Below are positions 5,601 to 56,051 of a stretch of 64,000 nucleotides of DNA, one piece after another (the stretch's first letter is position 1; every line of letters begins with the position of its first letter). A model generated the notes under the pieces. The model searched no databases. It worked only from the letters and a program-made list of their open reading frames with translations, and was not told where the DNA came from. The position numbers and the translations under genes are program-made. The stretch is taken from the NCBI GenBank assembly GCA_041744215.1, contig JBGTLG010000004.1:47637-111636 (forward strand). Direction: 5' to 3'. Source of the DNA: Fimbriimonadales bacterium (GTDB lineage: Bacteria; Armatimonadota; Fimbriimonadia; Fimbriimonadales; ATM1).

Positions 5601-6119
5601 TTGCAATACGGTGTGCCGCTCGAAGAGTTCGTCGATGCATTTTGTTTCACTCGATTTGAGCCCAACGGAATGGTCGGCGGCAACGATCACATCAAGATGG
5701 CTACGTCCGTGATCGACTACATCTTCCGAGAACTTGCTGTAACGTACCTCGGTCGCGCCGACTTCATGCACGTTTCGCCGGAAGACCTGAGAAGTGACAC
5801 GATCGGGAAACCGCAGCAGGAGGCCGACTTCACCGAGGAAGTGATTGTTGACGAGAACCACGGAGATCGCCCAGTACCAGGGCAAACAACCGAGAACCAC
5901 GAGGGTGCGGGATTCAGACCGGATCGCCCTAATGGGCACGCTCTCTCGGAGCCAATTCGTGTGGCATCTGGAGGGGCCGAAATCGAGGCGAAGATTCGAC
6001 AGGCGCGCCTTCAGGGTTATGAGGGTGATCCCTGTAACGAGTGCGGCCAATTCACGCTCGTTAGAAATGGCACATGCCTGAAGTGCCAGTCTTGTGGCGC
6101 TACGAGCGGATGCTCCTAA
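2628..6119 (+). CDS. nrdJ: Class II (adenosylcobalamin-dependent) ribonucleotide reductase with C-terminal TSCPD domain and Zn ribbon
   Basis: [37 protein letters not shown] motifs; C-terminal CNECG...CLKCQSCG. Confidence 0.97.
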
Positions 6120-46637: not shown

Positions 46638-49523
46638 CTACCTTCGTGCGGCGGCTTTGCGAGCCCGAGCGGCCTTCCCGTTGCTGCTCGGCAAGGCCGA
46701 CAACACAGCTTTCAAAAACTGCCCCGTAAAACTCTTAGAGCATGCCGCAACGGACTCTGGCGGCCCGGCGACAACGACCTCGCCACCGCGATCTCCCCCG
46801 TCCGGTCCCAGATCAACAATCCAATCCGCGGTCTTGATGACGTCCATGTTGTGCTCAATGACAACAACAGTATTCCCCTGGTCTACCAATCGATGCAACA
46901 CACCAAGCAGTTTCCGGATGTCTTCGAAATGCAACCCCGTCGTCGGCTCATCCAGAATGTAAAGCGTTGCGCCGGTAGATCGCTTGCTCAGTTCTGCCGC
47001 CAGCTTGATGCGCTGCGCCTCTCCACCAGAAAGAGTGGTTGCGGGCTGTCCCATTCGGATGTATCCAAGCCCAACGTCTTCCAACGTTTGCAGTTTGCGA
47101 TGGATCTTCGGAATCGCGGAAAAAAACTCGAGCGCTTCCGATAGCGTCATGTCCAAAACTTCGCTGATGTTCTTGCCTTTGTAGCGAATCTCCAAACTCT
47201 CTCGATTGTATCGCTTCCCCTTGCACACTTCGCAAGGAACATATACGTCGGGCAAAAACACCATCTCAATCTTGATGATCCCATCGCCCTTGCACGCCTC
47301 GCAACGTCCCCCCTTTACGTTGAAAGAAAACCGCCCAGCCTTGTACCCACGCATCTTGGCATCAGGCGTCATCGCGAACAAATCGCGAATCATGTCGAAA
47401 GTTCCGGTATACGTTGCAGGGTTGCTCCTCGGCGTCCTGCCAATCGGCGACTGATCGATGTCGATCACCTTATCGATCTCATCCATTCCACGAATCTTCT
47501 TGTGCGGCTGCCAAACTCCGCGCGTCCCGTGAATCTCATACATCAATCGCGGAAACAGCGTGTCTTGAATCAATGTCGATTTCCCAGACCCAGAAACACC
47601 TGTGATGCAAACAAACATCCCAAGCGGAATCTCAACGTCGATGCCCTTCAAGTTGTTTCCGCTCGCGCCTTCCACCACCAACTTCCGACCGTCGCCGACG
47701 CGTCTCTCGTTTGGCGGCAAAACAACCTTCTTCCCGGTCAAATACTGTGCTGTCAAAGAGCCCGATTTCAAAAACTGCGCGTAAGTGCCCTGTGCGACCA
47801 CCTCGCCCCCATGCTCACCTGCGCCGGGCCCCAAGTCGATCACCCAATCCGAAGCGCGCATGGTCTCCTCATCGTGTTCGACGACAATCACAGTGTTTCC
47901 CAAATCGCGCAATCGCAAAAGCGTTTGAATCAATCGCGCATTGTCTCGCTGATGCAGTCCGATGCTTGGCTCGTCGAGAATGTAAAGAACTCCCATCAGC
48001 CCCGAACCAATCTGCGTCGCAAGCCGGATCCGTTGCGCTTCGCCGCCAGCCAGCGTCCGCGCATTCCTGCTCAATGTCAAGTATCCCAATCCGACATCGC
48101 GCAAAAAACCCAGCCGAGATGCGATCTCCTTAACCGCGCGCTCAGCGATCTTTCGCTGCCGCGACGTCAACCGCTTCGGCAAAGTCTCAAAAAACTGGGA
48201 GGCCTCCTCGATGTTCATCTCGGATACATGCGAAATGTTCTTGTCAGCCAAAGTCACAGCGAGCGTCGCATCCTTTAGCCGCGCACCCTTGCATCGCGGG
48301 CAAGGATTTGTCGACATGTATTGCTCCAAGTCCTGCTTGACCCACTCGCTCTCCGTCGAGCGATAACGCTTCTGCAAAATCTGCAGAACGCCATCCCACT
48401 CCGTGTTGATCTTCCGCACCCGACCACCGGAATACTTGATCTCCACCGTAACAGGCTTGTCGTATCCGTCCATGACAATCTTCTTTACCTTCGCAGGCAA
48501 ATCGTCGTATGCAGCCTCCGAATCCACCTTGAGCGCTTTCGCCAAACCATCCAAAACATCCGGCCACCACTCCTTCAACTCTCCATTCTTATGAACGAAC
48601 GGCGCAATCGCACCCCCCCTCAATGAAATCGAACCGTCCGGCACCAAAAGTCCCGGATCGAACTCCGTCCGCGTCCCCAACCCGTTGCATTCCTCGCACG
48701 CGCCATAAGGAGAGTTAAACGAAAACATCCGAGGCTCAATCTCTCCCAGCGAAATCCCGCAATCAGGACAAGAAAAGTGCTCGCTGAACAATCGCTCTTC
48801 GCCCCCGACCGCGAAAATCGTCACCAATCCGTTCCCAAGCTTCAGCGCAGTCTCAACCGAATCCGCAAGCCGAGTCTCGATCCCTTCTTTCACAACTACG
48901 CGATCGACAACCGCCTCGATCGTGTGCTGCTTATACCGGTCCATCGGAATGTCGTCGGTCACTTCATACATCTCGCCATCAACGCGAACGCGAACGAAAC
49001 CCTGCTTCTGTATGTCGCCGATAACAGTCTTGAATTCGCCCTTGCGCGAACGAACCATCGGCGCGAGAATCTGCAGCTTCGCGCCTTCGCCAAACTCAAT
49101 AATCGCGTCCACGATCTGCTCGGTCGATTGGCGCTGTATCGGTTTGCCGCATCCAGGACAATGCGGAATCCCCGCGCGCGCAAACAAAATGCGCATGTAG
49201 TCGTAAATCTCTGTCACCGTGCCGACTGTCGAGCGCGGGTTGCGCGACGCCGATTTCTGATCAATGCTAACCGCAGGTGAAAGCCCATCGATGTGATCCA
49301 CGTCGGGCTTGTCCATCTGCCCCAAAAACTGCCGCGCGTATGCGCTCAAAGACTCAACATAGCGCCGCTGCCCCTCGGCATAGATCGTGTCGAAGGCGAG
49401 CGACGATTTGCCCGACCCACTCAGCCCAGTGATAACAACGAGCTTGTCCCTCGGTATCTCGATATGAAGGTTCCGAAGGTTGTGCTCCCGCGCCCCATGA
49501 ATAACGATCTTGTCCTGCGGCAT
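46638..49523 (-). CDS. uvrA: Excinuclease ABC subunit A
   Basis: Two Walker A motifs ([18 protein letters not shown]), zinc fingers, L(A/S)GGEAQRI twice. Confidence 0.99.
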
Positions 49524-49560
49524 CTGAGGCGTATTCTACTCAGAAATGGTAGACGGGGGG

Positions 49561-50328
49561 CTACTGGTTGGACTCCCTCACCGGTGCCGAAGACTCAAAC
49601 GTACTCGCACGCCAACCTGAGTGATCATACAGATAGTTGCCGAGGAAGGCAATGAATAACGCGAGCATCATTCCGATTATTCCGGAGAGAATCGGACGGG
49701 TTTTGACGAAGTCCGCTAGCAGCTCATAGGTCGGCTTCTTGAGCCGACGCAGTTCTCTATCCATAATGGACAAGAAGTTTGCTGGCATTTGCTGTGATTT
49801 GAGTCTAGCTCGACACTCGTCGCAAAGTCGAGGCTTGTGCATCGAGTGGCGGATATCGAGTTTGTTTGCGTTCATGTCAAACAGGCAGCCACGAGTGTCG
49901 TCATGAGCGATTCCATACGGAGACTTTGGTATCTGATTTTTGCTAGAATAATAGACGCATGCCAAGAGATACAGATTGCGGATGACGAAGTTTTCAAGCG
50001 GCAAACGGTAGAACTCAAGGATGACCGACATCTCGTCGAGAGTTATTACGCACTTGTTGTTCCCGAGTCTTCGGACATAATATCCATCCTCCAGCGGTTT
50101 GTTGATAATCCCCACTGTCACATCGCAGTTCGCGTCATGCAGAATCACACTTTCCAACTCTTCATCGTCGTAGACCCACTCGTTTCCACCCGCATTTGGT
50201 AGTTGGGCGAGGTCTTCTACATCTACAATGCAGAAAATGTCACTCTTCCACTTTCTAATCTTGTGAAACAACAGTTCGGATTGGAAATGACCCAGCTTGA
50301 TCAGTTTTATTTTCAACGGAAGTCCCAT
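49561..50328 (-). CDS. Hypothetical protein with H..TRGCLFD...CxxC motif and C-terminal TM helix
   Basis: More AT-rich than neighbours; start at ATG 50328 (GAGT upstream); Cys pattern resembles archaemetzincin but HEXXH is absent. Confidence 0.7.
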   Translation of the reverse strand: MGLPLKIKLIKLGHFQSELLFHKIRKWKSDIFCIVDVEDLAQLPNAGGNEWVYDDEELESVILHDANCDVTVGIINKPLEDGYYVRRLGNNKCVITLDEMSVILEFYRLPLENFVIRNLYLLACVYYSSKNQIPKSPYGIAHDDTRGCLFDMNANKLDIRHSMHKPRLCDECRARLKSQQMPANFLSIMDRELRRLKKPTYELLADFVKTRPILSGIIGMMLALFIAFLGNYLYDHSGWRASTFESSAPVRESNQ

Positions 50329-50390
50329 ACTACTCACCTGCGGTTTATGCTGCCGACCGAATCCGGTCGGCTGCATAGGTATTCTATCTC

Positions 50391-51071
50391 CTATCCCGGA
50401 ATCGTCACGCTGCTGGGTTCGGAGAACGGGCCGAGTTCGCCGCGTGGCGACACCCATGCGCCGCGAACCCAAAACGTCTTCCCGATATCTTCCGGGTCAA
50501 ACGTCGGGTTGTTCGGCGTGCTCGTGTCGTCGGCGACAAACGTCATTTCCGTCGCGGGCGGCGCGGGCTGACCAACATCGACCACAGCCCCGATCAGCCG
50601 ACAAGCCCGCGCACCCGGCGCCTTGCCCCGCCGACCCGGCGCAGAACTGTCCGGCGACCAAAAGTGCACCCGCACCTCCTGCGGGCCAAACGGCTCGGCC
50701 TCCACTTCCGGCGGAACCTCTGGCGCGTTGATCGGCGACTTGGTCGTGTCGCGAATGGTGATGCCCAGCGCCGCACGCTCGGTATCGTCCACCGAGGGGC
50801 TCGCCTGAAGAATGGCGACCAGCGTTTGGGCGAACCCTTCCAGCGCATCGCGGGCGTCGTCTTTCGTCTAGGCGGCGGCCTGCGCGGCGTTTTGGGCGGT
50901 GATGTGGTCGGGGTAGGCGGTTTGCCAGTCGGCGTAGGCTGCCACCAGATTCGTCCATTCGGCCGAGAGGGGGTTGATGCCAAGAGCGGCGAGGTTCGCC
51001 GTGGCGTACGTCATGAAGGCCGTGATCCACGTGTTGAACAAGGCATCGGCGCGGGGCATGTATCCAGCCAT
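50391..51071 (-). pseudogene. Helical-bundle plus FN3-like protein interrupted by one in-frame TAG (50868-50870)
   Basis: Strong AGGAGG RBS before ATG 51071; ORFs 50868-51071 and 50391-50867 are in the same frame (AQAAA*TKDDARD); C-terminal W.RGAW..PRGE.GPFSEP FN3-like end. Confidence 0.8.
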
Positions 51072-51150
51072 TATTGACCTCCTAAGATCAGTTTGAACGT
51101 CACTCTTCGACGTAGCCTTGGTACCCTCCTTCTTGCGTTTTGGGAGCCCA

Positions 51151-51330
51151 TCCGCCTCACTCGGAAAGTGTTCCGGCTCAGCCGGAACACTTTCCCACCC
51201 GCCCGGAAAGGCTTCCGGCTCAGCCGGAACACTTTCCCGCCCACCCGGAGAAGCTCCCGGCTCAGCCGGAGAACTACCCGAGTCGGCTGGAGAAGCACCC
51301 GGCGCGCCCGTAGAACTATCCGACCCGGCT
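51151..51330. repeat. Tandem array of about 8.5 degenerate 21-bp units, several internally palindromic
   Basis: Units start 51151, 51172, 51193, 51214, 51235, 51256, 51277, 51298, 51319; TCCGGCTCAGCCGGAACACTT exact at 51172 and 51214. Confidence 0.9.
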
Positions 51331-51387
51331 GCGTCGGCCTGCAGCCGAAGGGTAGACGCCCCGCGCGAGCCGGCACGCTTGGCCGAG

Positions 51388-51466
51388 GCCACACCCCTTC
51401 CACGGGGTGTAGGCTCTGAATCGGATCCGACGGATGCCACGCCCGGTGGAACGGGTGTGGCATCCG
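51388..51466. repeat. Inverted pair of REP-like palindromes
   Basis: GCCACACCCC-TTCCAC-GGGGTGTAGGC (51388-51414) and CGGATGCCACGCCCG-GTGGAA-CGGGTGTGGCATCCG (51431-51466) are near reverse complements of each other. Confidence 0.75.
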
Positions 51467-51574
51467 GAAGCTACCGCAGCCTTCCATCGCGGACTTGCGC
51501 CAGGCCTCTCCAAAACCAAAACCGGCCGCGATGCAACAACATGCAGCGCGGCCGCGTTCCATAGTCCTCGAAGA

Positions 51575-52084
51575 CTAATGATCGAAGTGCATTTCCATGT
51601 CGCCCCAGGTGGTCTGCAAGTAGTCAATCTGCGCCGCATGGCACATTGCGTGCGTCGCGCAAAGTTGCAGCAAGAACGGCACGCTCAGCGTTCCAAATGG
51701 CGTCGGAATCTCTCGCGAGATGTCCTCAGGCTTAACGCCGTCTATCGCCGCCGCGAGGTCGGCCGTCGTCGCCTTCACCGCCGAAACGACTTCATCGCGT
51801 GTGGCCATCGCCTTTTCGGCATTGTCCATGTGGCCGATGAGTTCAGGGAGCGTCATCTCGGGCATGGTCTCGCCTCGCAGCATCGAAGCAAATGCCTGGT
51901 TGGTAACGGCGATGTGCGCGGCGAGCTGAAGGGCGGGTTTCGCCGTTGCTGATGGGCTGTGGCCAAGTTTGTCGTCGGGCACTGCGGCCAGTGTGGAAAG
52001 GAGGTACCCGGTGCTCCATTCGAGGCCCTGTTTGGCCTGTTCTTTCATTCCTTGGGTCGCGTCGGTCATAGTTGCTTCAGTCAT
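51575..52084 (-). CDS. DinB/YfiT-like four-helix metal-binding protein
   Basis: VPDDKL..SP, AAHIA, HAMCHAAQIDYLQ His triad. Confidence 0.85.
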   Translation of the reverse strand: MTEATMTDATQGMKEQAKQGLEWSTGYLLSTLAAVPDDKLGHSPSATAKPALQLAAHIAVTNQAFASMLRGETMPEMTLPELIGHMDNAEKAMATRDEVVSAVKATTADLAAAIDGVKPEDISREIPTPFGTLSVPFLLQLCATHAMCHAAQIDYLQTTWGDMEMHFDH

Positions 52085-52312
52085 GGGCCAAGCATTCCGG
52101 GCTCTGGCATCGCGCTGCCTCAGAGTGCTACAACTAACCCCTCTCATGCATGCACTTCTTTGCGTTGACGCGATAAGCTACTCCGCAACGATAACGCCAA
52201 AGTACTGCTTTCACGCGCCGGGAACAGGCCAAAGCTTGCTGAGCGCGCACATCAGAGTACGGATCCGCAATTCCAATGCCGCACCACTGCCAAAGGGTGT
52301 ATCACCGGGAGA

Positions 52313-53002
52313 TTACTCATCGTCATCAGAGTCCCAAAGCTTCTGCCGCTTTCGAACAAGCGATTGAAACTCTGAGTACATTTCCATTACTTCCAGCCTG
52401 TACTCTTCAATTCGTCCATCGAGTTCGATTGCGAAGCCCAAGAGATCGTGGAATGCTACACGACCAAGCTCCAGCTTATGATCGCAAAATTGGAACTCTC
52501 TCAGAAGCCGCGGAGAAGCAATCAACAACGTAGTCCAGCCAAGACGAAGTCCAGGGTCAACCATGATCCAGGCTTTTTGCCCATCTCTATGTCCATCGCA
52601 TGATCCCGCTGTGACAACCCCAATGGTGTTCAATAGCAGCACGATTCTCGCTATTCCAGGGTCCATCTGCAATGGACGATCATAGAACTTGATGTTGAGA
52701 TCCACCTCCCAATATGCGGTGCTTGTCTCGCCGCAAACTCCCTCCGCAAAGTTGACAATCTTCGATAGCAACTCGTTAAATCGCTCCAGATCTTCTGGGC
52801 AGGTCAAGGCTTCATTGACGAGTGACAGGAACCGCTCATTGGAGCCGTCAATGGAACGACATCGCTGAACTTGTTCCTCGATGTTACGGTCAGGGTCAAA
52901 GCCCCTGAGCCAAAGTGCAAAATCAAGTTTGTTAGCCCACCTTGAGTTCTGCTCGAGGTGGGCGATAGTCAGCGGTTCTCTTGTCCCATTTCGCATTTGC
53001 AT
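52313..53002 (-). CDS. Hypothetical protein with LN..G..T..SCDGH motif (TYW3-like fold suspected)
   Basis: MDPGIARIVLLLNTIGVVTAGSCDGH; overlaps the upstream nuclease gene. Confidence 0.65.
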   Translation of the reverse strand: MQMRNGTREPLTIAHLEQNSRWANKLDFALWLRGFDPDRNIEEQVQRCRSIDGSNERFLSLVNEALTCPEDLERFNELLSKIVNFAEGVCGETSTAYWEVDLNIKFYDRPLQMDPGIARIVLLLNTIGVVTAGSCDGHRDGQKAWIMVDPGLRLGWTTLLIASPRLLREFQFCDHKLELGRVAFHDLLGFAIELDGRIEEYRLEVMEMYSEFQSLVRKRQKLWDSDDDE

Positions 53003-53730
53003 CTTTCAGGTCCGTCCTGGATATACCTTTTGACAAATTCAATTGCGAGATCATCGCTCTTCGAACCACCTCGGTAGGCGAAGTCGTGGAACTTCTGAGC
53101 GAATCCCTTCCATTGCAGGCTTGAGTCGTCGTGAAATCGCTTTGTCGGATATCTTCTAAAACGCCCCGAAAAGAACTTTGCTATGTCGTCGAATGTCACC
53201 TGCAAAATGCGGGGATGCGTCTGTGCCAAATCGCCTTTATCAGATGATACCGTTACGTAACGCACCACATGAGTTGCCGTTTGCCCATCATCGTTTGAGT
53301 ATTCAGCATACAGTGATTTATAGATGCAGTCGGCAACTTGGTCTAAGTCTTCTTTTGGCGCAAAACCGACACGGTAAAGGGCCCGATGGATGTTACGTTT
53401 ACTTGGGTCAGTGTGTGGTCCATTGATTCTTGCATTTCCAGACTTCACTTCGACGAGATAGATCAAATGGCAGTTGGACGTTTCATTCGGAACGATTAGG
53501 GGATCGTCTTCCAATTCGACACATCCATGCGCCTCACAGGAGAGCGCGAATCGTATTGCGATTAGGTCGATATCTGTGCGTGGGGAGTTGCCCGGTTCAC
53601 CCGGATGAATGATGAATCCAGGAATCGTGAAGAAGCCGTTGAAACGGAAGTATGCCAGAGCGACGTCTTCCGCGCGTTCTCCGCGTTTCCGCCGCTCGAA
53701 TTCATCTCCTTGCTGTGGTCGCATGAACAT
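52969..53730 (-). CDS. PD-(D/E)xK nuclease-like protein
   Basis: G..AE.VA..YF..NGF, TDIDLIAIR, LVEVKSG motifs; GGAGG RBS and TAGAAT -10 upstream. Confidence 0.75.
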   Translation of the reverse strand: MFMRPQQGDEFERRKRGERAEDVALAYFRFNGFFTIPGFIIHPGEPGNSPRTDIDLIAIRFALSCEAHGCVELEDDPLIVPNETSNCHLIYLVEVKSGNARINGPHTDPSKRNIHRALYRVGFAPKEDLDQVADCIYKSLYAEYSNDDGQTATHVVRYVTVSSDKGDLAQTHPRILQVTFDDIAKFFSGRFRRYPTKRFHDDSSLQWKGFAQKFHDFAYRGGSKSDDLAIEFVKRYIQDGPERCKCEMGQENR

Positions 53731-54712: not shown

Positions 54713-55303
54713 TCACCGACTCAGCCACATCGTAATCAGGCTTCCTGCCGCGCCGCCCAAAGCCGCCGCAGTAAACAGCCAGAACATCACCTTCCGCGCG
54801 AATGGCCTCTCTTGACGCTCGCGTAGCCGCACATCGTGCAGTCTGAATTTCTTCGTCATGAACCCGTCCGTCGCCTCCACCCGCTCGGTCTTCGGGTTGT
54901 AGCTTACGATCGAGGCCGTGCCCCATCCCCACCAGCCCTTCCAGTTGCACATCAGTTTCTGACCGGGCAGCAAGTCCAGCGGACGAATGTCCGACGTGGG
55001 GACAGTGTGTTCACTGCCTTGCAAGAAGCGCACGCGTACCCCCCCCTCACTTGCGTCAATCACGTCGGCGACGTAGAAGTGGTCGTCGCTCGACCGGGCG
55101 AATACGCGGCTCCCGACCTCAGGCGGCACGATCATTGGCGAAAACTCCTGAATCGCCTGGATCATCGCGTCGCGTGAGATGCCGACCTCTTCTGCGGCGC
55201 GCAACAGGGCTTCGGCGTCCGCGCTGTTGCGCCACGGGCCACTCTCCTGTTCGATCTCCTCCGCGCGCGCGAGGACTTCGCGAATCTGCTCTTGCTTAAG
55301 CAT
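54713..55303 (-). CDS. Membrane protein with N-terminal helical domain, two Tudor/SH3-like domains and C-terminal TM
   Basis: GSRVFARSSDDHFYVADV...VRFLQGS and GQKLMCNWKGWWGWGTASI...ATDG repeats. Confidence 0.7.
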   Translation of the reverse strand: MLKQEQIREVLARAEEIEQESGPWRNSADAEALLRAAEEVGISRDAMIQAIQEFSPMIVPPEVGSRVFARSSDDHFYVADVIDASEGGVRVRFLQGSEHTVPTSDIRPLDLLPGQKLMCNWKGWWGWGTASIVSYNPKTERVEATDGFMTKKFRLHDVRLRERQERPFARKVMFWLFTAAALGGAAGSLITMWLSR

Positions 55304-55371: not shown

Positions 55372-55872
55372 TCAGTCGAGCTTCGGCGCTTGCAGCTCTT
55401 CGCCGGACAGCGAATACCGCGCGACGACTTTCGCGTCCTTCGGGTCGGCGATCGTTCCTCCGTGTTCGCCCGACGACTCTTCGTCGTACGTGAGCTTGAC
55501 CACAAACTCCGATCCGACCTTCTCCACGTAAAAGTAATCGCCGCCGCCTGCCCACCAGCCGCCAACCGCCGAAAGCGCGGTGTCCGGAATGCCGTGATGC
55601 TCGGAGGTTAGCTTCGCGCATGCGGCTGACGCGCCGACTTTGACCGCGCGACCCCCCAAGTGCAGCATGACATCGTGAGCGGGCATACCCTCGTCCGCGC
55701 TTGTAGAGACGCAGGCGAGATAGACCTCGCTGTCCGCGAGCGCAGGCGGCGTGGGTTTGGTGTCGGTTGCGCTCTCTTGGGTCGGTGTCTCGATGGTTAC
55801 GGAACTCTCGTCCCTCGCGCAGCCGAACGCCAGGAACGAGAGGAGGGCCAAGGCTTGAGCGGTTCTTAACAT
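55372..55872 (-). CDS. Lipoprotein
   Basis: MLRTAQALALLSFLAFG^C lipobox; WWAGGGDYFY motif. Confidence 0.75.
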   Translation of the reverse strand: MLRTAQALALLSFLAFGCARDESSVTIETPTQESATDTKPTPPALADSEVYLACVSTSADEGMPAHDVMLHLGGRAVKVGASAACAKLTSEHHGIPDTALSAVGGWWAGGGDYFYVEKVGSEFVVKLTYDEESSGEHGGTIADPKDAKVVARYSLSGEELQAPKLD

Positions 55873-56051
55873 GGAAAGATTATGCACGCCCTCCGCTGCT
55901 GGCTCGGGCGAATCGCCTTCTCTCAGCGGGCAGCGCGATCCAGACGACCTCTTCCCCCATCGATCCTGGCCGGTGGAAGCATGTCGGCCCACGCCCGCTC
56001 GGCCCAGGGGGCACACCATAACCGAAGCGAATGCTGTTCTTCAAGTTTTTT

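Follow-up and report, generated by a model that had tools for sequence, protein, structure and literature searches.

The question raised by this locus is whether a tandem array of 21-bp units and the gene that follows it belong together, and if so, what connects them. Both lie in a 64,000 nucleotide (nt) stretch of the chromosome of a Fimbriimonadales bacterium (GenBank assembly GCA_041744215.1, contig JBGTLG010000004.1, positions 47,637–111,636), here called the window, which carries housekeeping genes. An inspection of the letters alone (termed the sequence-only reading) had drawn attention to the pair. Comparison with related loci gives good support to the conclusion that a fast-evolving, non-coding 21-bp minisatellite and the gene are inherited together as a module, and that the window holds a decayed copy of it.

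The array is at positions 51143–51331 and is confirmed as a non-coding minisatellite of nine 21-bp units with a 42-bp super-period. Tandem Repeats Finder (TRF) gives four rows at 51158–51331. Two of these have period 42 (2.7 copies, 87% matches, 0 indels, score 170; and 2.0 copies, 81% matches, score 114) and two have period 21 (5.0 copies, 63% matches, 0 indels, score 82; and 5.1 copies, 68% matches, 4% indels, score 74). Counted from these rows, the array is 87 nt upstream of the gene. In the whole window TRF reports 18 rows, and none outside the array scores above 59. The sequence-only reading described indel-free 21-bp units of two alternating types, A and B, with a 42-bp higher-order period and a palindrome in type A. 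All of this is borne out: the nine units (51331–51143) align in a 21-nt register with 0 indels, period 42 gives the highest TRF score, and the type-A dyad is an exact 8-1-8 palindrome, TTCCGGCTCAGCCGGAA. The dyad is found at 51171–51187 (0 mismatches), again at 51213–51229, 42 bp from the first (0 mismatches), and in a degenerate form a further 42 bp on at 51255–51271 (2 mismatches). There are 6 strand-matches to TTCCGGCTCAGCCGGAA where 0.20 are expected, none of 100 shuffles reached 6, and the palindrome is found nowhere else in the window. The gene-proximal units are the best kept and the distal units are degenerate. No strand is assigned to the array or to its dyads.

The gene is on the minus strand at 50391–51071 and has 226 codons plus a stop (50393–50391), as recognized from the open reading frame (ORF), homologues, and AlphaFold2 and Foldseek analyses. 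A 71-nt spacer (51072–51142, minus strand) separates the array from the start codon, ATG at 51071–51069, and holds a Shine-Dalgarno sequence, AGGAGG at 51083–51078, with a spacing of 6 nt. The strong ribosome binding site and the approximate length of 226 codons that had been noted beside the array are thus correct. The coding sequence is interrupted by an in-frame TAG at codon 68 (50868–50870, minus strand), which is inside the long second helix of the predicted protein, at the predicted dimer interface.

Does the array accompany the gene in other genomes? A pattern scan with one genome per species gave 109 loci that encode relatives, and the best 80 of the 109 (727 kb) were analyzed; the set is without the window's own subfamily (P0002–P0011, 44–51% identity). 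An array was scored as period-21-type if TRF gave a period of 20–22, 41–42, 62–63 or 83–84, a score of at least 50 and a length of at least 55 bp, and it was counted as upstream if it ended no more than 600 bp upstream of the gene, in loci with enough upstream sequence. Such arrays are upstream of the homologue in 34 of 74 loci and downstream in 1 of 72, and are present in 9 of 681 background windows of 600 bp that are more than 1.5 kb away. An autocorrelation scan is in agreement. The best strong lag is 21 in 25 loci and 42 in 9 (34 of 75), compared with 1 of 73 downstream and 3 of 54 far upstream. The arrays have 3–19 units and are 50–500 bp upstream of the gene. By the labels in record titles, the array loci are from Planctomycetota (21), Acidobacteriota (4), Armatimonadota (2), Chloroflexota (1), Cyanobacteria (2) and Alphaproteobacteria (1), with 4 unlabelled, although the labels can be wrong because the genomes are metagenome bins. 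The sequence-only reading had proposed enrichment beside homologues as a check, and stated that similar genes often sit beside 21-bp repeats in other phyla; the enrichment is found, and arrays occur under six phylum labels. In a neighbour-joining tree of 61 full-length proteins out of 77, which carries no support values, arrays occur in most deep branches.

No other conserved gene neighbours the family gene. When genes around the array are clustered, the family gene is present in 78 loci, the next two clusters are its shadow frames, and all others are in at most 6 loci. Among genome relatives, L072 is the closest to the C-terminal half of the window copy; being a truncated pseudogene directly adjoining the upstream gene, it is uninformative on arrays. 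A single conserved GCGGATG box shows no enrichment in array-less loci (3–4 of 42). The array plus the gene is a well supported, conserved two-part module.

No stop codon interrupts the window array in the frame of the gene as far as the ATG (ORF 50868–51440), and gene callers have given N-terminal extensions to a few homologues (P0033, 268 amino acids (aa); P0044, 351 aa; several among the profile-search matches). Both features are what would be expected if the array were a heptapeptide coding repeat, either as an N-terminal extension of the gene or as a separate small ORF. Other loci speak against this. The same Met start is found in 39 of 48 homologues, 5 of 36 arrays (35 loci and the window) are closed in all six frames, and in 0 of 35 loci does a frame spanning the array continue into the gene body. 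Nor is there a pattern of codon use. Differences between like units number 10, 14 and 13 at codon positions 1, 2 and 3, and pooled arrays are without 3-nt periodicity. The sequence-only reading had named synonymous substitution in one frame as the mark of a coding repeat; none is seen, synonymous and non-synonymous differences being 4 and 21 in the gene frame and 7 and 20 in the best of any frame. A coding repeat is thus ruled out by the closed frames and by the absence of a synonymous pattern and of 3-nt periodicity, and is given next to no probability. The other loci show the open frame through the window array to be due to chance.

How the array evolves can be seen in six close orthologue pairs, which are not independent: L020 and L042 were each used twice and L037 three times. 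In the close pairs array identity is 0.64–0.75 where third codon positions are 0.72–0.79. In the near-identical pair L037/L039 the array identity is 0.93, compared with 0.97 at third positions and 1.0 in the flank. The array-to-ATG spacer is 0.90–0.98 identical in all six pairs, and spacers of this kind are the best conserved of the non-coding parts in related loci. The spacer identity is well above the third positions (0.72–0.79) in L010/L011, L020/L023, L020/L024 and L042/L045, but not in L037/L042 (0.90 vs 0.94) or L037/L039 (0.92 vs 0.97). Gaps between orthologous arrays are whole units (L037/L042, gap of 21 nt; L010/L011, offset of 42 nt), and array divergence increases the farther a position is from the gene. 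Different clades have unrelated unit sequences, and paralogues in one genome (L016/L051, L004/L030, L023/L055) share the gene but not the array. The period, by comparison, is constant. Averaged over 25 arrays, the autocorrelation reaches 0.69 at lag 21, 0.70 at lag 42 and 0.68 at lag 63, compared with about 0.25 at other lags. Array drift close to the synonymous rate, gaps of whole units and a conserved spacer together argue that the period is kept and the sequence is free, and that the adjacent leader or promoter is tightly constrained.

The pooled arrays of the 25 loci show no autocorrelation peak at 3, 7 or 14 nt. A 7-nt sub-period that would link the 21-bp arrays to heptamer repeats is therefore rejected. 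Within the units there is a weak sub-period of about 4.2 nt, autocorrelation being raised at lags 4, 8, 13, 17, 25, 29, 34 and 38.

Whole-unit differences between orthologues, the degenerate units at array edges, as in arrays with turnover, and the L037/L039 array that changes faster than its flanks would fit a contingency locus, in which units are gained or lost by slippage or unequal exchange and thereby tune or switch the island gene. However, steps of 21 bp keep the helical phase and would therefore make a poor on/off switch, and known bacterial switches use much shorter units. Cases with 7-bp and 4-bp units are cited in the available part of PMC4679880. A contingency function is considered quite improbable.

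The near-neutral drift of the arrays, their absence from about half of the loci and the unrelated unit sequences of different clades also agree with a neutral passenger, i.e. an ancestral 21-bp duplication by the promoter that turns over and is carried along with the gene. Bacterial genomes shed useless repeats, yet the arrays persist in most deep clades under six phylum labels. They are, in addition, always on the 5′ side (34 upstream and 1 downstream), and the exact period is kept. The passenger explanation is about as improbable as that of a contingency locus.

The gene product has no match to Pfam, PADLOC, PHROGs or NCBIfam models or to PDB sequences. A 40-sequence profile recovers 6852 cluster representatives when the cutoff is E ≤ 1e-3, 4176 when it is E ≤ 1e-10 and 867 when it is E ≤ 1e-30, and nearly all of the 150 representatives among the matches listed are about 220 aa long. 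Members share 30–45% identity, and 39 of 48 homologues are 219–228 aa in length and cover 98–100% of the window read-through from its ATG. Look-alikes in the protein atlas are unnamed clusters only, and the one fused form of the N-domain is a longer protein of 527 aa with no Pfam domain. The family is thus large and unnamed, with a chain length of about 220 aa, no domain entry and no solved relative.

The AlphaFold2 model of the window protein has a predicted local distance difference test score (pLDDT) of 93 and displays helices at residues 9–25, 37–66, 70–90 and 96–101 and a beta domain at 122–223. The beta domain (about residues 118–226) matches many FN3 domains when searched with Foldseek against PDB (E about 2e-5; target-normalised template modelling score 0.55–0.71 in the top matches); the Pfam fn3 model is below significance on the window protein, and the Foldseek viral library gives only generic FN3 matches. 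Thus the helix bundle followed by an FN3-like C-terminus that had been read from the translation is confirmed by the predicted structure. In the window the predicted helical dimerisation domain, residues 1–105, is encoded at 51071–50757 and the FN3 domain, residues 118–226, at 50720–50394, both on the minus strand. Folded alone, the helical N-domain has a pLDDT of 92, but it has no significant PDB fold match (best E 3.8) and no PDB sequence match.

Two copies of the homologue P0016, modelled together, give an interface score (ipSAE) of 0.75 compared with 0.00 for the best control. The interface comprises residues 3–105, i.e. the N-terminal helices; at least 87% of contacts are shared between runs, and the partner has a pLDDT of 85 or more. 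Among proteins with solved structures, 20 of 30 pairs and 1 of 23 single chains attain a score of 0.75, counts which are only approximate here because a custom alignment was used. The model was run on P0016 and not on the broken copy of the window. It supports, but does not show, that the family protein is a symmetric dimer through its N-terminal helices.

At the alignment column of the window's TAG, 19 homologues have Q (9), A (7), E (2) or R (1). An alternative genetic code was considered and rejected: TAG ends 13 of 45 window ORFs, and table 11 leaves long conserved genes, UvrA among them, uninterrupted. As TAG is an ordinary stop here, the window copy either is a pseudogene or carries a base error. 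In-frame stops or frameshifts are also found in 11 of 80 related loci, so that 12 of 81 copies are broken when the window is counted.

Does the array act as DNA or as RNA? The sequence-only reading had offered phased protein-binding sites in DNA or a processed, multi-hairpin RNA. A dyad is present in most units, and as a rule the arrays fold better than shuffled sequences, with a median z of −2.6 for the sense and −2.8 for the antisense strand over 36 arrays. For the window array the RNA fold is −105 kcal/mol (z −5.5) in the gene-sense strand and −86 kcal/mol (z −6.6) in the antisense strand. The gene-sense strand folds better in only 18 of the 36 arrays. Among the 18 arrays with a defined stem, there are 53 GU and 52 AC mismatches alongside 531 Watson-Crick pairs, and this lack of strand bias favours an element that acts at the DNA level. 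For the recurrent core GGATG, 11 arrays have it in the sense orientation and 4 in the opposite one; the 11 are not independent, as seven are from one Pirellulales lineage. None of the three comparisons points to a preferred strand. Of 36 loci, 8 have matches to a sigma-70-like consensus, which is of E. coli type and may not fit these phyla, within the spacer, and 3 have them on the upstream side of the array; no array contains one. The strand-symmetry tests thus lean toward DNA without settling the choice, and the evidence as a whole leans toward a putative double-stranded DNA element upstream of a promoter.

A CsrA sponge, with GGA in hairpin loops, is rejected, as several arrays contain no GGA and the motif is found in mixed orientation. 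Searches with Rfam 15 gave only sub-threshold chance matches in window positions 49500–52500 and no match in the arrays of ten loci.

Folding on both strands may itself be the function. Tandem dyads, clustered as hairpins in the nascent transcript or in DNA that is unwound, would shield the gene against read-through arriving from either direction or stabilise the end of a transcript, regardless of sequence. The folding of most arrays, two-strand folding with equal numbers of GU and AC (which fits a two-way insulator), dyads that are kept while sequence drifts, and the presence of similar arrays before other island genes are all consistent with such a role, and hairpin clusters have been proposed as terminators in the accessible text of PMC8355165. 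On the other hand, 8 of the 36 arrays (L002, L010, L016, L017, L033, L047, L048 and L050) fold no better than shuffles on either strand, there are no T-runs after units, and in the window the upstream DinB_2-family gene already has a terminator-like hairpin (51523–51554). Such a function also leaves the exact 21-bp period across phyla without an explanation. It is possible, though rather unlikely.

The explanation preferred here, with a probability of roughly one in three, is a phased row of dyad sites upstream of the promoter to which a dimer would bind cooperatively, with the product of the gene itself as the most plausible candidate. The array would act at the DNA level, upstream of the putative promoter and leader of the gene. 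Its dyad-symmetric sites are exactly two helical turns apart and therefore would all face one side of the helix, and a dimeric protein might load cooperatively along them and set expression of the gene. The gene's own product is the best candidate for the binder because it is a predicted symmetric dimer and is encoded by the only gene that travels with the array. Since each paralogue has its own unit sequence, the array–protein pairs would be insulated from one another.

Several observations weigh against this explanation. The protein displays no nucleic-acid-binding signature: its median isoelectric point is 6.1 (range 4.3–10.9), the median net charge of the N-domain is −2 and the window copy is acidic. 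It has no helix-turn-helix (HTH), ribbon-helix-helix or winged-helix match, and the best fold match of the N-domain is that with an E-value of 3.8 cited above. Array drift is at or above the synonymous rate (0.64–0.75 vs 0.72–0.79 at third positions), which is unexpected for sequence-specific sites unless protein and site co-evolve. No array is found by TRF in 40 of 74 loci, and one Phycisphaerae clade has a different conserved upstream block in place of arrays. Nor is the array exclusive to the family, since unrelated genes of the islands (HEPN plus nucleotidyltransferase, Bro-N, HTH genes and a methylase fragment) are also preceded by arrays of period 21. Finally, the promoter scan relied on the E. 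coli-type consensus mentioned above.

The leader region has features of its own. A GGAG- or GAAAGG-type site is found just before the ATG in most of the 72 listed loci (as read off the listing, not counted), and beyond the ribosome site no leader motif common to the family was found. In the window, spacer 51072–51142 shows no fold above shuffles (z 0.14) and no terminator is seen there between the repeats and the gene. In one Planctomycetota clade (L020, L023, L024, L041, L053 and L065) a GC-rich hairpin (GGCGGCGG-loop-CCGCCGC) is 20–45 nt before the start and directly precedes the ribosome site; the stems are kept and the loop varies. The spacer of L048 has a match to Acido-Lenti-1 RNA at 5644–5690 (minus strand; 50.9 bits, gathering score 37) inside an apparent small inverted-repeat insertion, and this insertion would explain the long spacer of 451 nt in L048.

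Other upstream sequences were also noted. The Phycisphaerae clade (L007, L026, L044, L049, L052 and L056) has a block of about 100 nt some 110 nt upstream of the start, CCGCGTGCCGA..TTGAYGGC..GGGTAGCGG..GAGCGGGTCAACGAATCCA, and further upstream the same six loci have short 9-nt CTCCGTGCG-type repeats ending in GGTGAAA. The period-21 arrays outside the family are at L033:4623–4679, L037:1347–1457, L031:151–287, L027:3430–3524 and L009:1122–1193, and those of L031 and L033 share a GGATGACCCG core. Period-7 arrays (also 14, 15 and 22) are found upstream, replacing or beside the period-21 type, at L014:262–444, L038:2013–2165, L055:5758–5891, L033:5716–5910 and L047:3668–3840.

What kind of chromosomal region carries the module? 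From either flank the closest ORFs with 120 aa or more were taken, 142 altogether. Six were left out before the PADLOC scan; four of these six had a Pfam scan, and one HEPN protein and one Bro-N protein are among them. PADLOC matches at E ≤ 1e-10 were obtained for 12 of 68 and 16 of 68, i.e. 28 of 136 neighbours. As a small control, 41 housekeeping ORFs of the window gave 3 matches, all generic (cyclase, spermidine synthase, UvrA). Twenty-three of the 28 are of specific types. Of these, 12 are DNA methyltransferases and 2 are restriction enzymes; the others are a TIR effector, a SIR2/ThsA-like protein, SoFic, a caspase, a PLD/DrmC-like protein, a phospholipase effector and candidate systems. 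The remaining 5 are generic domains. Pfam analysis of the first 68 neighbours adds an IS1595 transposase, phage tail-collar domains, Fic, SLATT and HEPN, as well as about eight polysaccharide-synthesis genes in one Pirellulales clade. The module is thus carried in variable or defence-island regions of many phyla, which is well supported. No relatives were found in phage or plasmid collections by tblastn, and the six ORFs without an assigned family around the module of the window have no PADLOC match.

The commonest nearest neighbour is a DNA methyltransferase, 12 of 136 (L013, L019, L036, L048, L055 and seven more loci). In the five loci named, a methylase, fused restriction-methylase or restriction gene is divergent from the family gene; the array is in the shared divergent intergenic region in L019, L036, L048 and L055, and L013 is without an array. 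A group II intron domain match (46.4 bits) is at L016:12118–12194, about 5.5 kb downstream of the Hormoscilla copy.

The island context bears on the possibility that the array has its partner role as RNA. It would be transcribed, and perhaps cut into 21- or 42-nt units that bind the dimeric protein, in a stand-alone defence system that would work like a type III toxin-antitoxin pair or one of the newer array-guided systems. The order of repeats, spacer and gene with a strong ribosome site is as expected for such a pair, as are an array private to each paralogue, the excess of defence genes among neighbours (28 of 136 vs 3 of 41 housekeeping ORFs in PADLOC), a gene that is multi-copy and often decayed, and a patchy spread over several phyla. 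However, neither stem mismatches nor folding show a strand bias, and the core motif occurs in either orientation. The units are only 63–68% alike at period 21, whereas processed antitoxin repeats (ToxI) have near-identical units. The protein is without a nuclease-like or RNA-binding fold, and promoter-like sites are mostly between the array and the gene. An RNA partner is therefore unlikely, though less so than a contingency locus or a neutral passenger.

A broader proposal is that the 21-nt units, as DNA or RNA, are the cognate partner of the dimeric helical-bundle/FN3 protein, and that the two form a stand-alone, horizontally mobile immune or addiction module of an undescribed kind. There would be a private unit code for each paralogue and thousands of variants across Planctomycetota, Acidobacteriota, Armatimonadota, Chloroflexota, Cyanobacteria and Bacteroidota. 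This proposal is tentative and carries a low probability, similar to that of the hairpin cluster.

The surroundings of the module in the window are as follows. On the minus strand the order is a DinB_2-family gene (51575–52147, from Pfam), the terminator-like hairpin with a T-rich tail after it (51523–51554), two inverted hairpins, the array, the spacer and the family gene. The terminator-like hairpin, also on the minus strand, is the outer limit of the upstream region of the module. The two inverted hairpins, to which no strand is assigned, are distal to the array. One is at 51385–51416 and has a 13-bp stem (85%) and a 6-nt loop; the other, at 51431–51466, is an inverted copy of it with a 15-bp stem (93%) and a 6-nt loop. 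Their fold z-scores are −5.1 and −5.7 on the two strands. The sequence-only reading had called them a REP-like pair. The inverted pair of palindromes is real, but the REP-like label, in the sense of a dispersed element, is not supported because the hairpins occur once, with no further copies of either in the 64 kb. A G-T pair in the plus strand of the distal hairpin becomes A-C on the gene-sense strand, and on the gene-sense strand the two hairpins (51385–51466) can also pair together into one long stem.

Just downstream of the family gene, a 303-aa ORF overlaps the end of the gene if a TTG start is used. ORFs without a significant Pfam or PADLOC family are at 49561–50472, 52313–53002, 52969–53730, 54713–55303 and 55372–56019, all on the minus strand; that at 54713–55303 has sub-threshold Tudor-like matches only. 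This stretch of unassigned ORFs, with the module in it, has UvrA at one end and a gene for an ECF-type sigma factor at the other, and may be a small variable island. The GC content is 0.52 at 52–54 kb, 0.59–0.62 over the module and about 0.55 overall.

Array and gene have been compared with known systems of similar appearance. CRISPR is the most easily set apart. As the sequence-only reading had stated, there are no unique spacers, all units being variants of two types, and no cas family was found by Pfam and PADLOC among 41 large window ORFs or in six ORFs at 49.5–56 kb.

REP and BIME elements are also short, GC-rich, imperfect palindromes in tandem, with alternating types and a super-period. 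However, REPs are dispersed in many copies per genome, whereas the unit and the hairpins here are unrepeated in 64 kb and the array is tied to one gene family.

Type III toxin-antitoxin systems (ToxIN, CptIN, TenpIN) have tandem direct repeats directly upstream of a single gene on the same strand, a repeat sequence private to the locus, a mobile or defence-island context and a patchy distribution, all of which are seen here. Type III antitoxin units are longer, 34 nt or more, unlike the 21-nt units described here, which moreover are only 63–68% alike and show no strand bias. The protein is also different. It is a predicted helical dimer with FN3 and not an endoribonuclease of the ToxN/AbiQ type, and no match of the gene product to the ToxN, AbiQ, CptN or TenpN endoribonuclease families was found in PADLOC, Pfam, PHROG or NCBIfam.

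The TAACTGA heptamer arrays of Beggiatoaceae, Cyanobacteria and Bacteroidetes are just upstream of start codons, and their binding factors are unknown according to the available part of PMC4679880. As described there, these too are oriented tandem arrays upstream of start codons in several phyla, and three of the present loci (L014, L038 and L055) carry period-7 arrays. The same text describes one shared 7-nt sequence that abuts the start codons of many unrelated genes. The arrays here have 21-bp, locus-specific, dyad-bearing units that are 50–500 bp upstream and display no 7-nt sub-period.

The closest parallel to the preferred explanation is found in iteron/Rep and centromere-like arrays (parC/ParR, omega heptads), and it is in the manner of these that the phased dyad sites would work. 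They are direct repeats about two helical turns apart, upstream of the gene of the binder, with a sequence specific to each replicon or paralogue. Iterons have repeats of 17–22 bp about two helical turns apart, and the period of 21 with its autocorrelation of 0.69 falls within this range. The present arrays are unlike them in being chromosomal, with no plasmid or phage match, and in having no winged-helix or ribbon-helix-helix fold in the protein. No partner ATPase or origin features were seen, and the 3–19 units are much more degenerate.

TIGR-Tas (18-nt period) and VIPR (5-nt period), which date from 2025–2026, as far as the available parts of their descriptions go, resemble the module in that a short-period, non-coding array is linked to one protein family and was found through periodicity. 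In the accessible text on VIPR, the protein is described as oligomerising along the repeat RNA (VIPR papers; 10.64898/2026.10.21.760802). These descriptions of Vipr and Tas also set the present system apart, since its period is 21, it has no fixed-plus-variable guide code and its fold, which matches generic FN3 domains in Foldseek, appears unrelated; neither the 5-nt GGY/NN repeats of VIPR nor the 18-nt alternating repeats of TIGR-Tas correspond to the array. A survey of periodic intergenic clusters gives, in its available part, peaks at 60–79, 18, 5, 10, 8 and 7 nt and none at 21 (10.64898/2026.10.21.760802), and no published description of period-21 arrays or of the family was found in searches of full-text literature.

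The sequence-only reading had suggested an undescribed array-plus-protein module, and this agrees with the absence of any match in Rfam, Pfam, PADLOC, PHROGs, NCBIfam, PDB (sequence search and N-domain fold) or the literature searched. Because the array–gene pairing recurs across phyla, often by anti-phage genes, the two do look like an undescribed repeat-plus-protein module. A protein family with thousands of sequence clusters and no name carries, among restriction-modification and defence genes, an array of which the period and not the sequence persists across phyla. If the array is a platform upstream of the promoter, it would be a natural example, of unusual clarity, in which selection holds the helical phasing and leaves the sequence free, useful for the study of regulation in phyla whose promoters are barely known. 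If it is the partner of the protein, it would represent a new array-plus-protein system and a new nucleic-acid-binding fold. Short-period arrays tied to one protein family have repeatedly proved to be new nucleic-acid-based systems, e.g. CRISPR, type III toxin-antitoxin, TIGR-Tas and VIPR.

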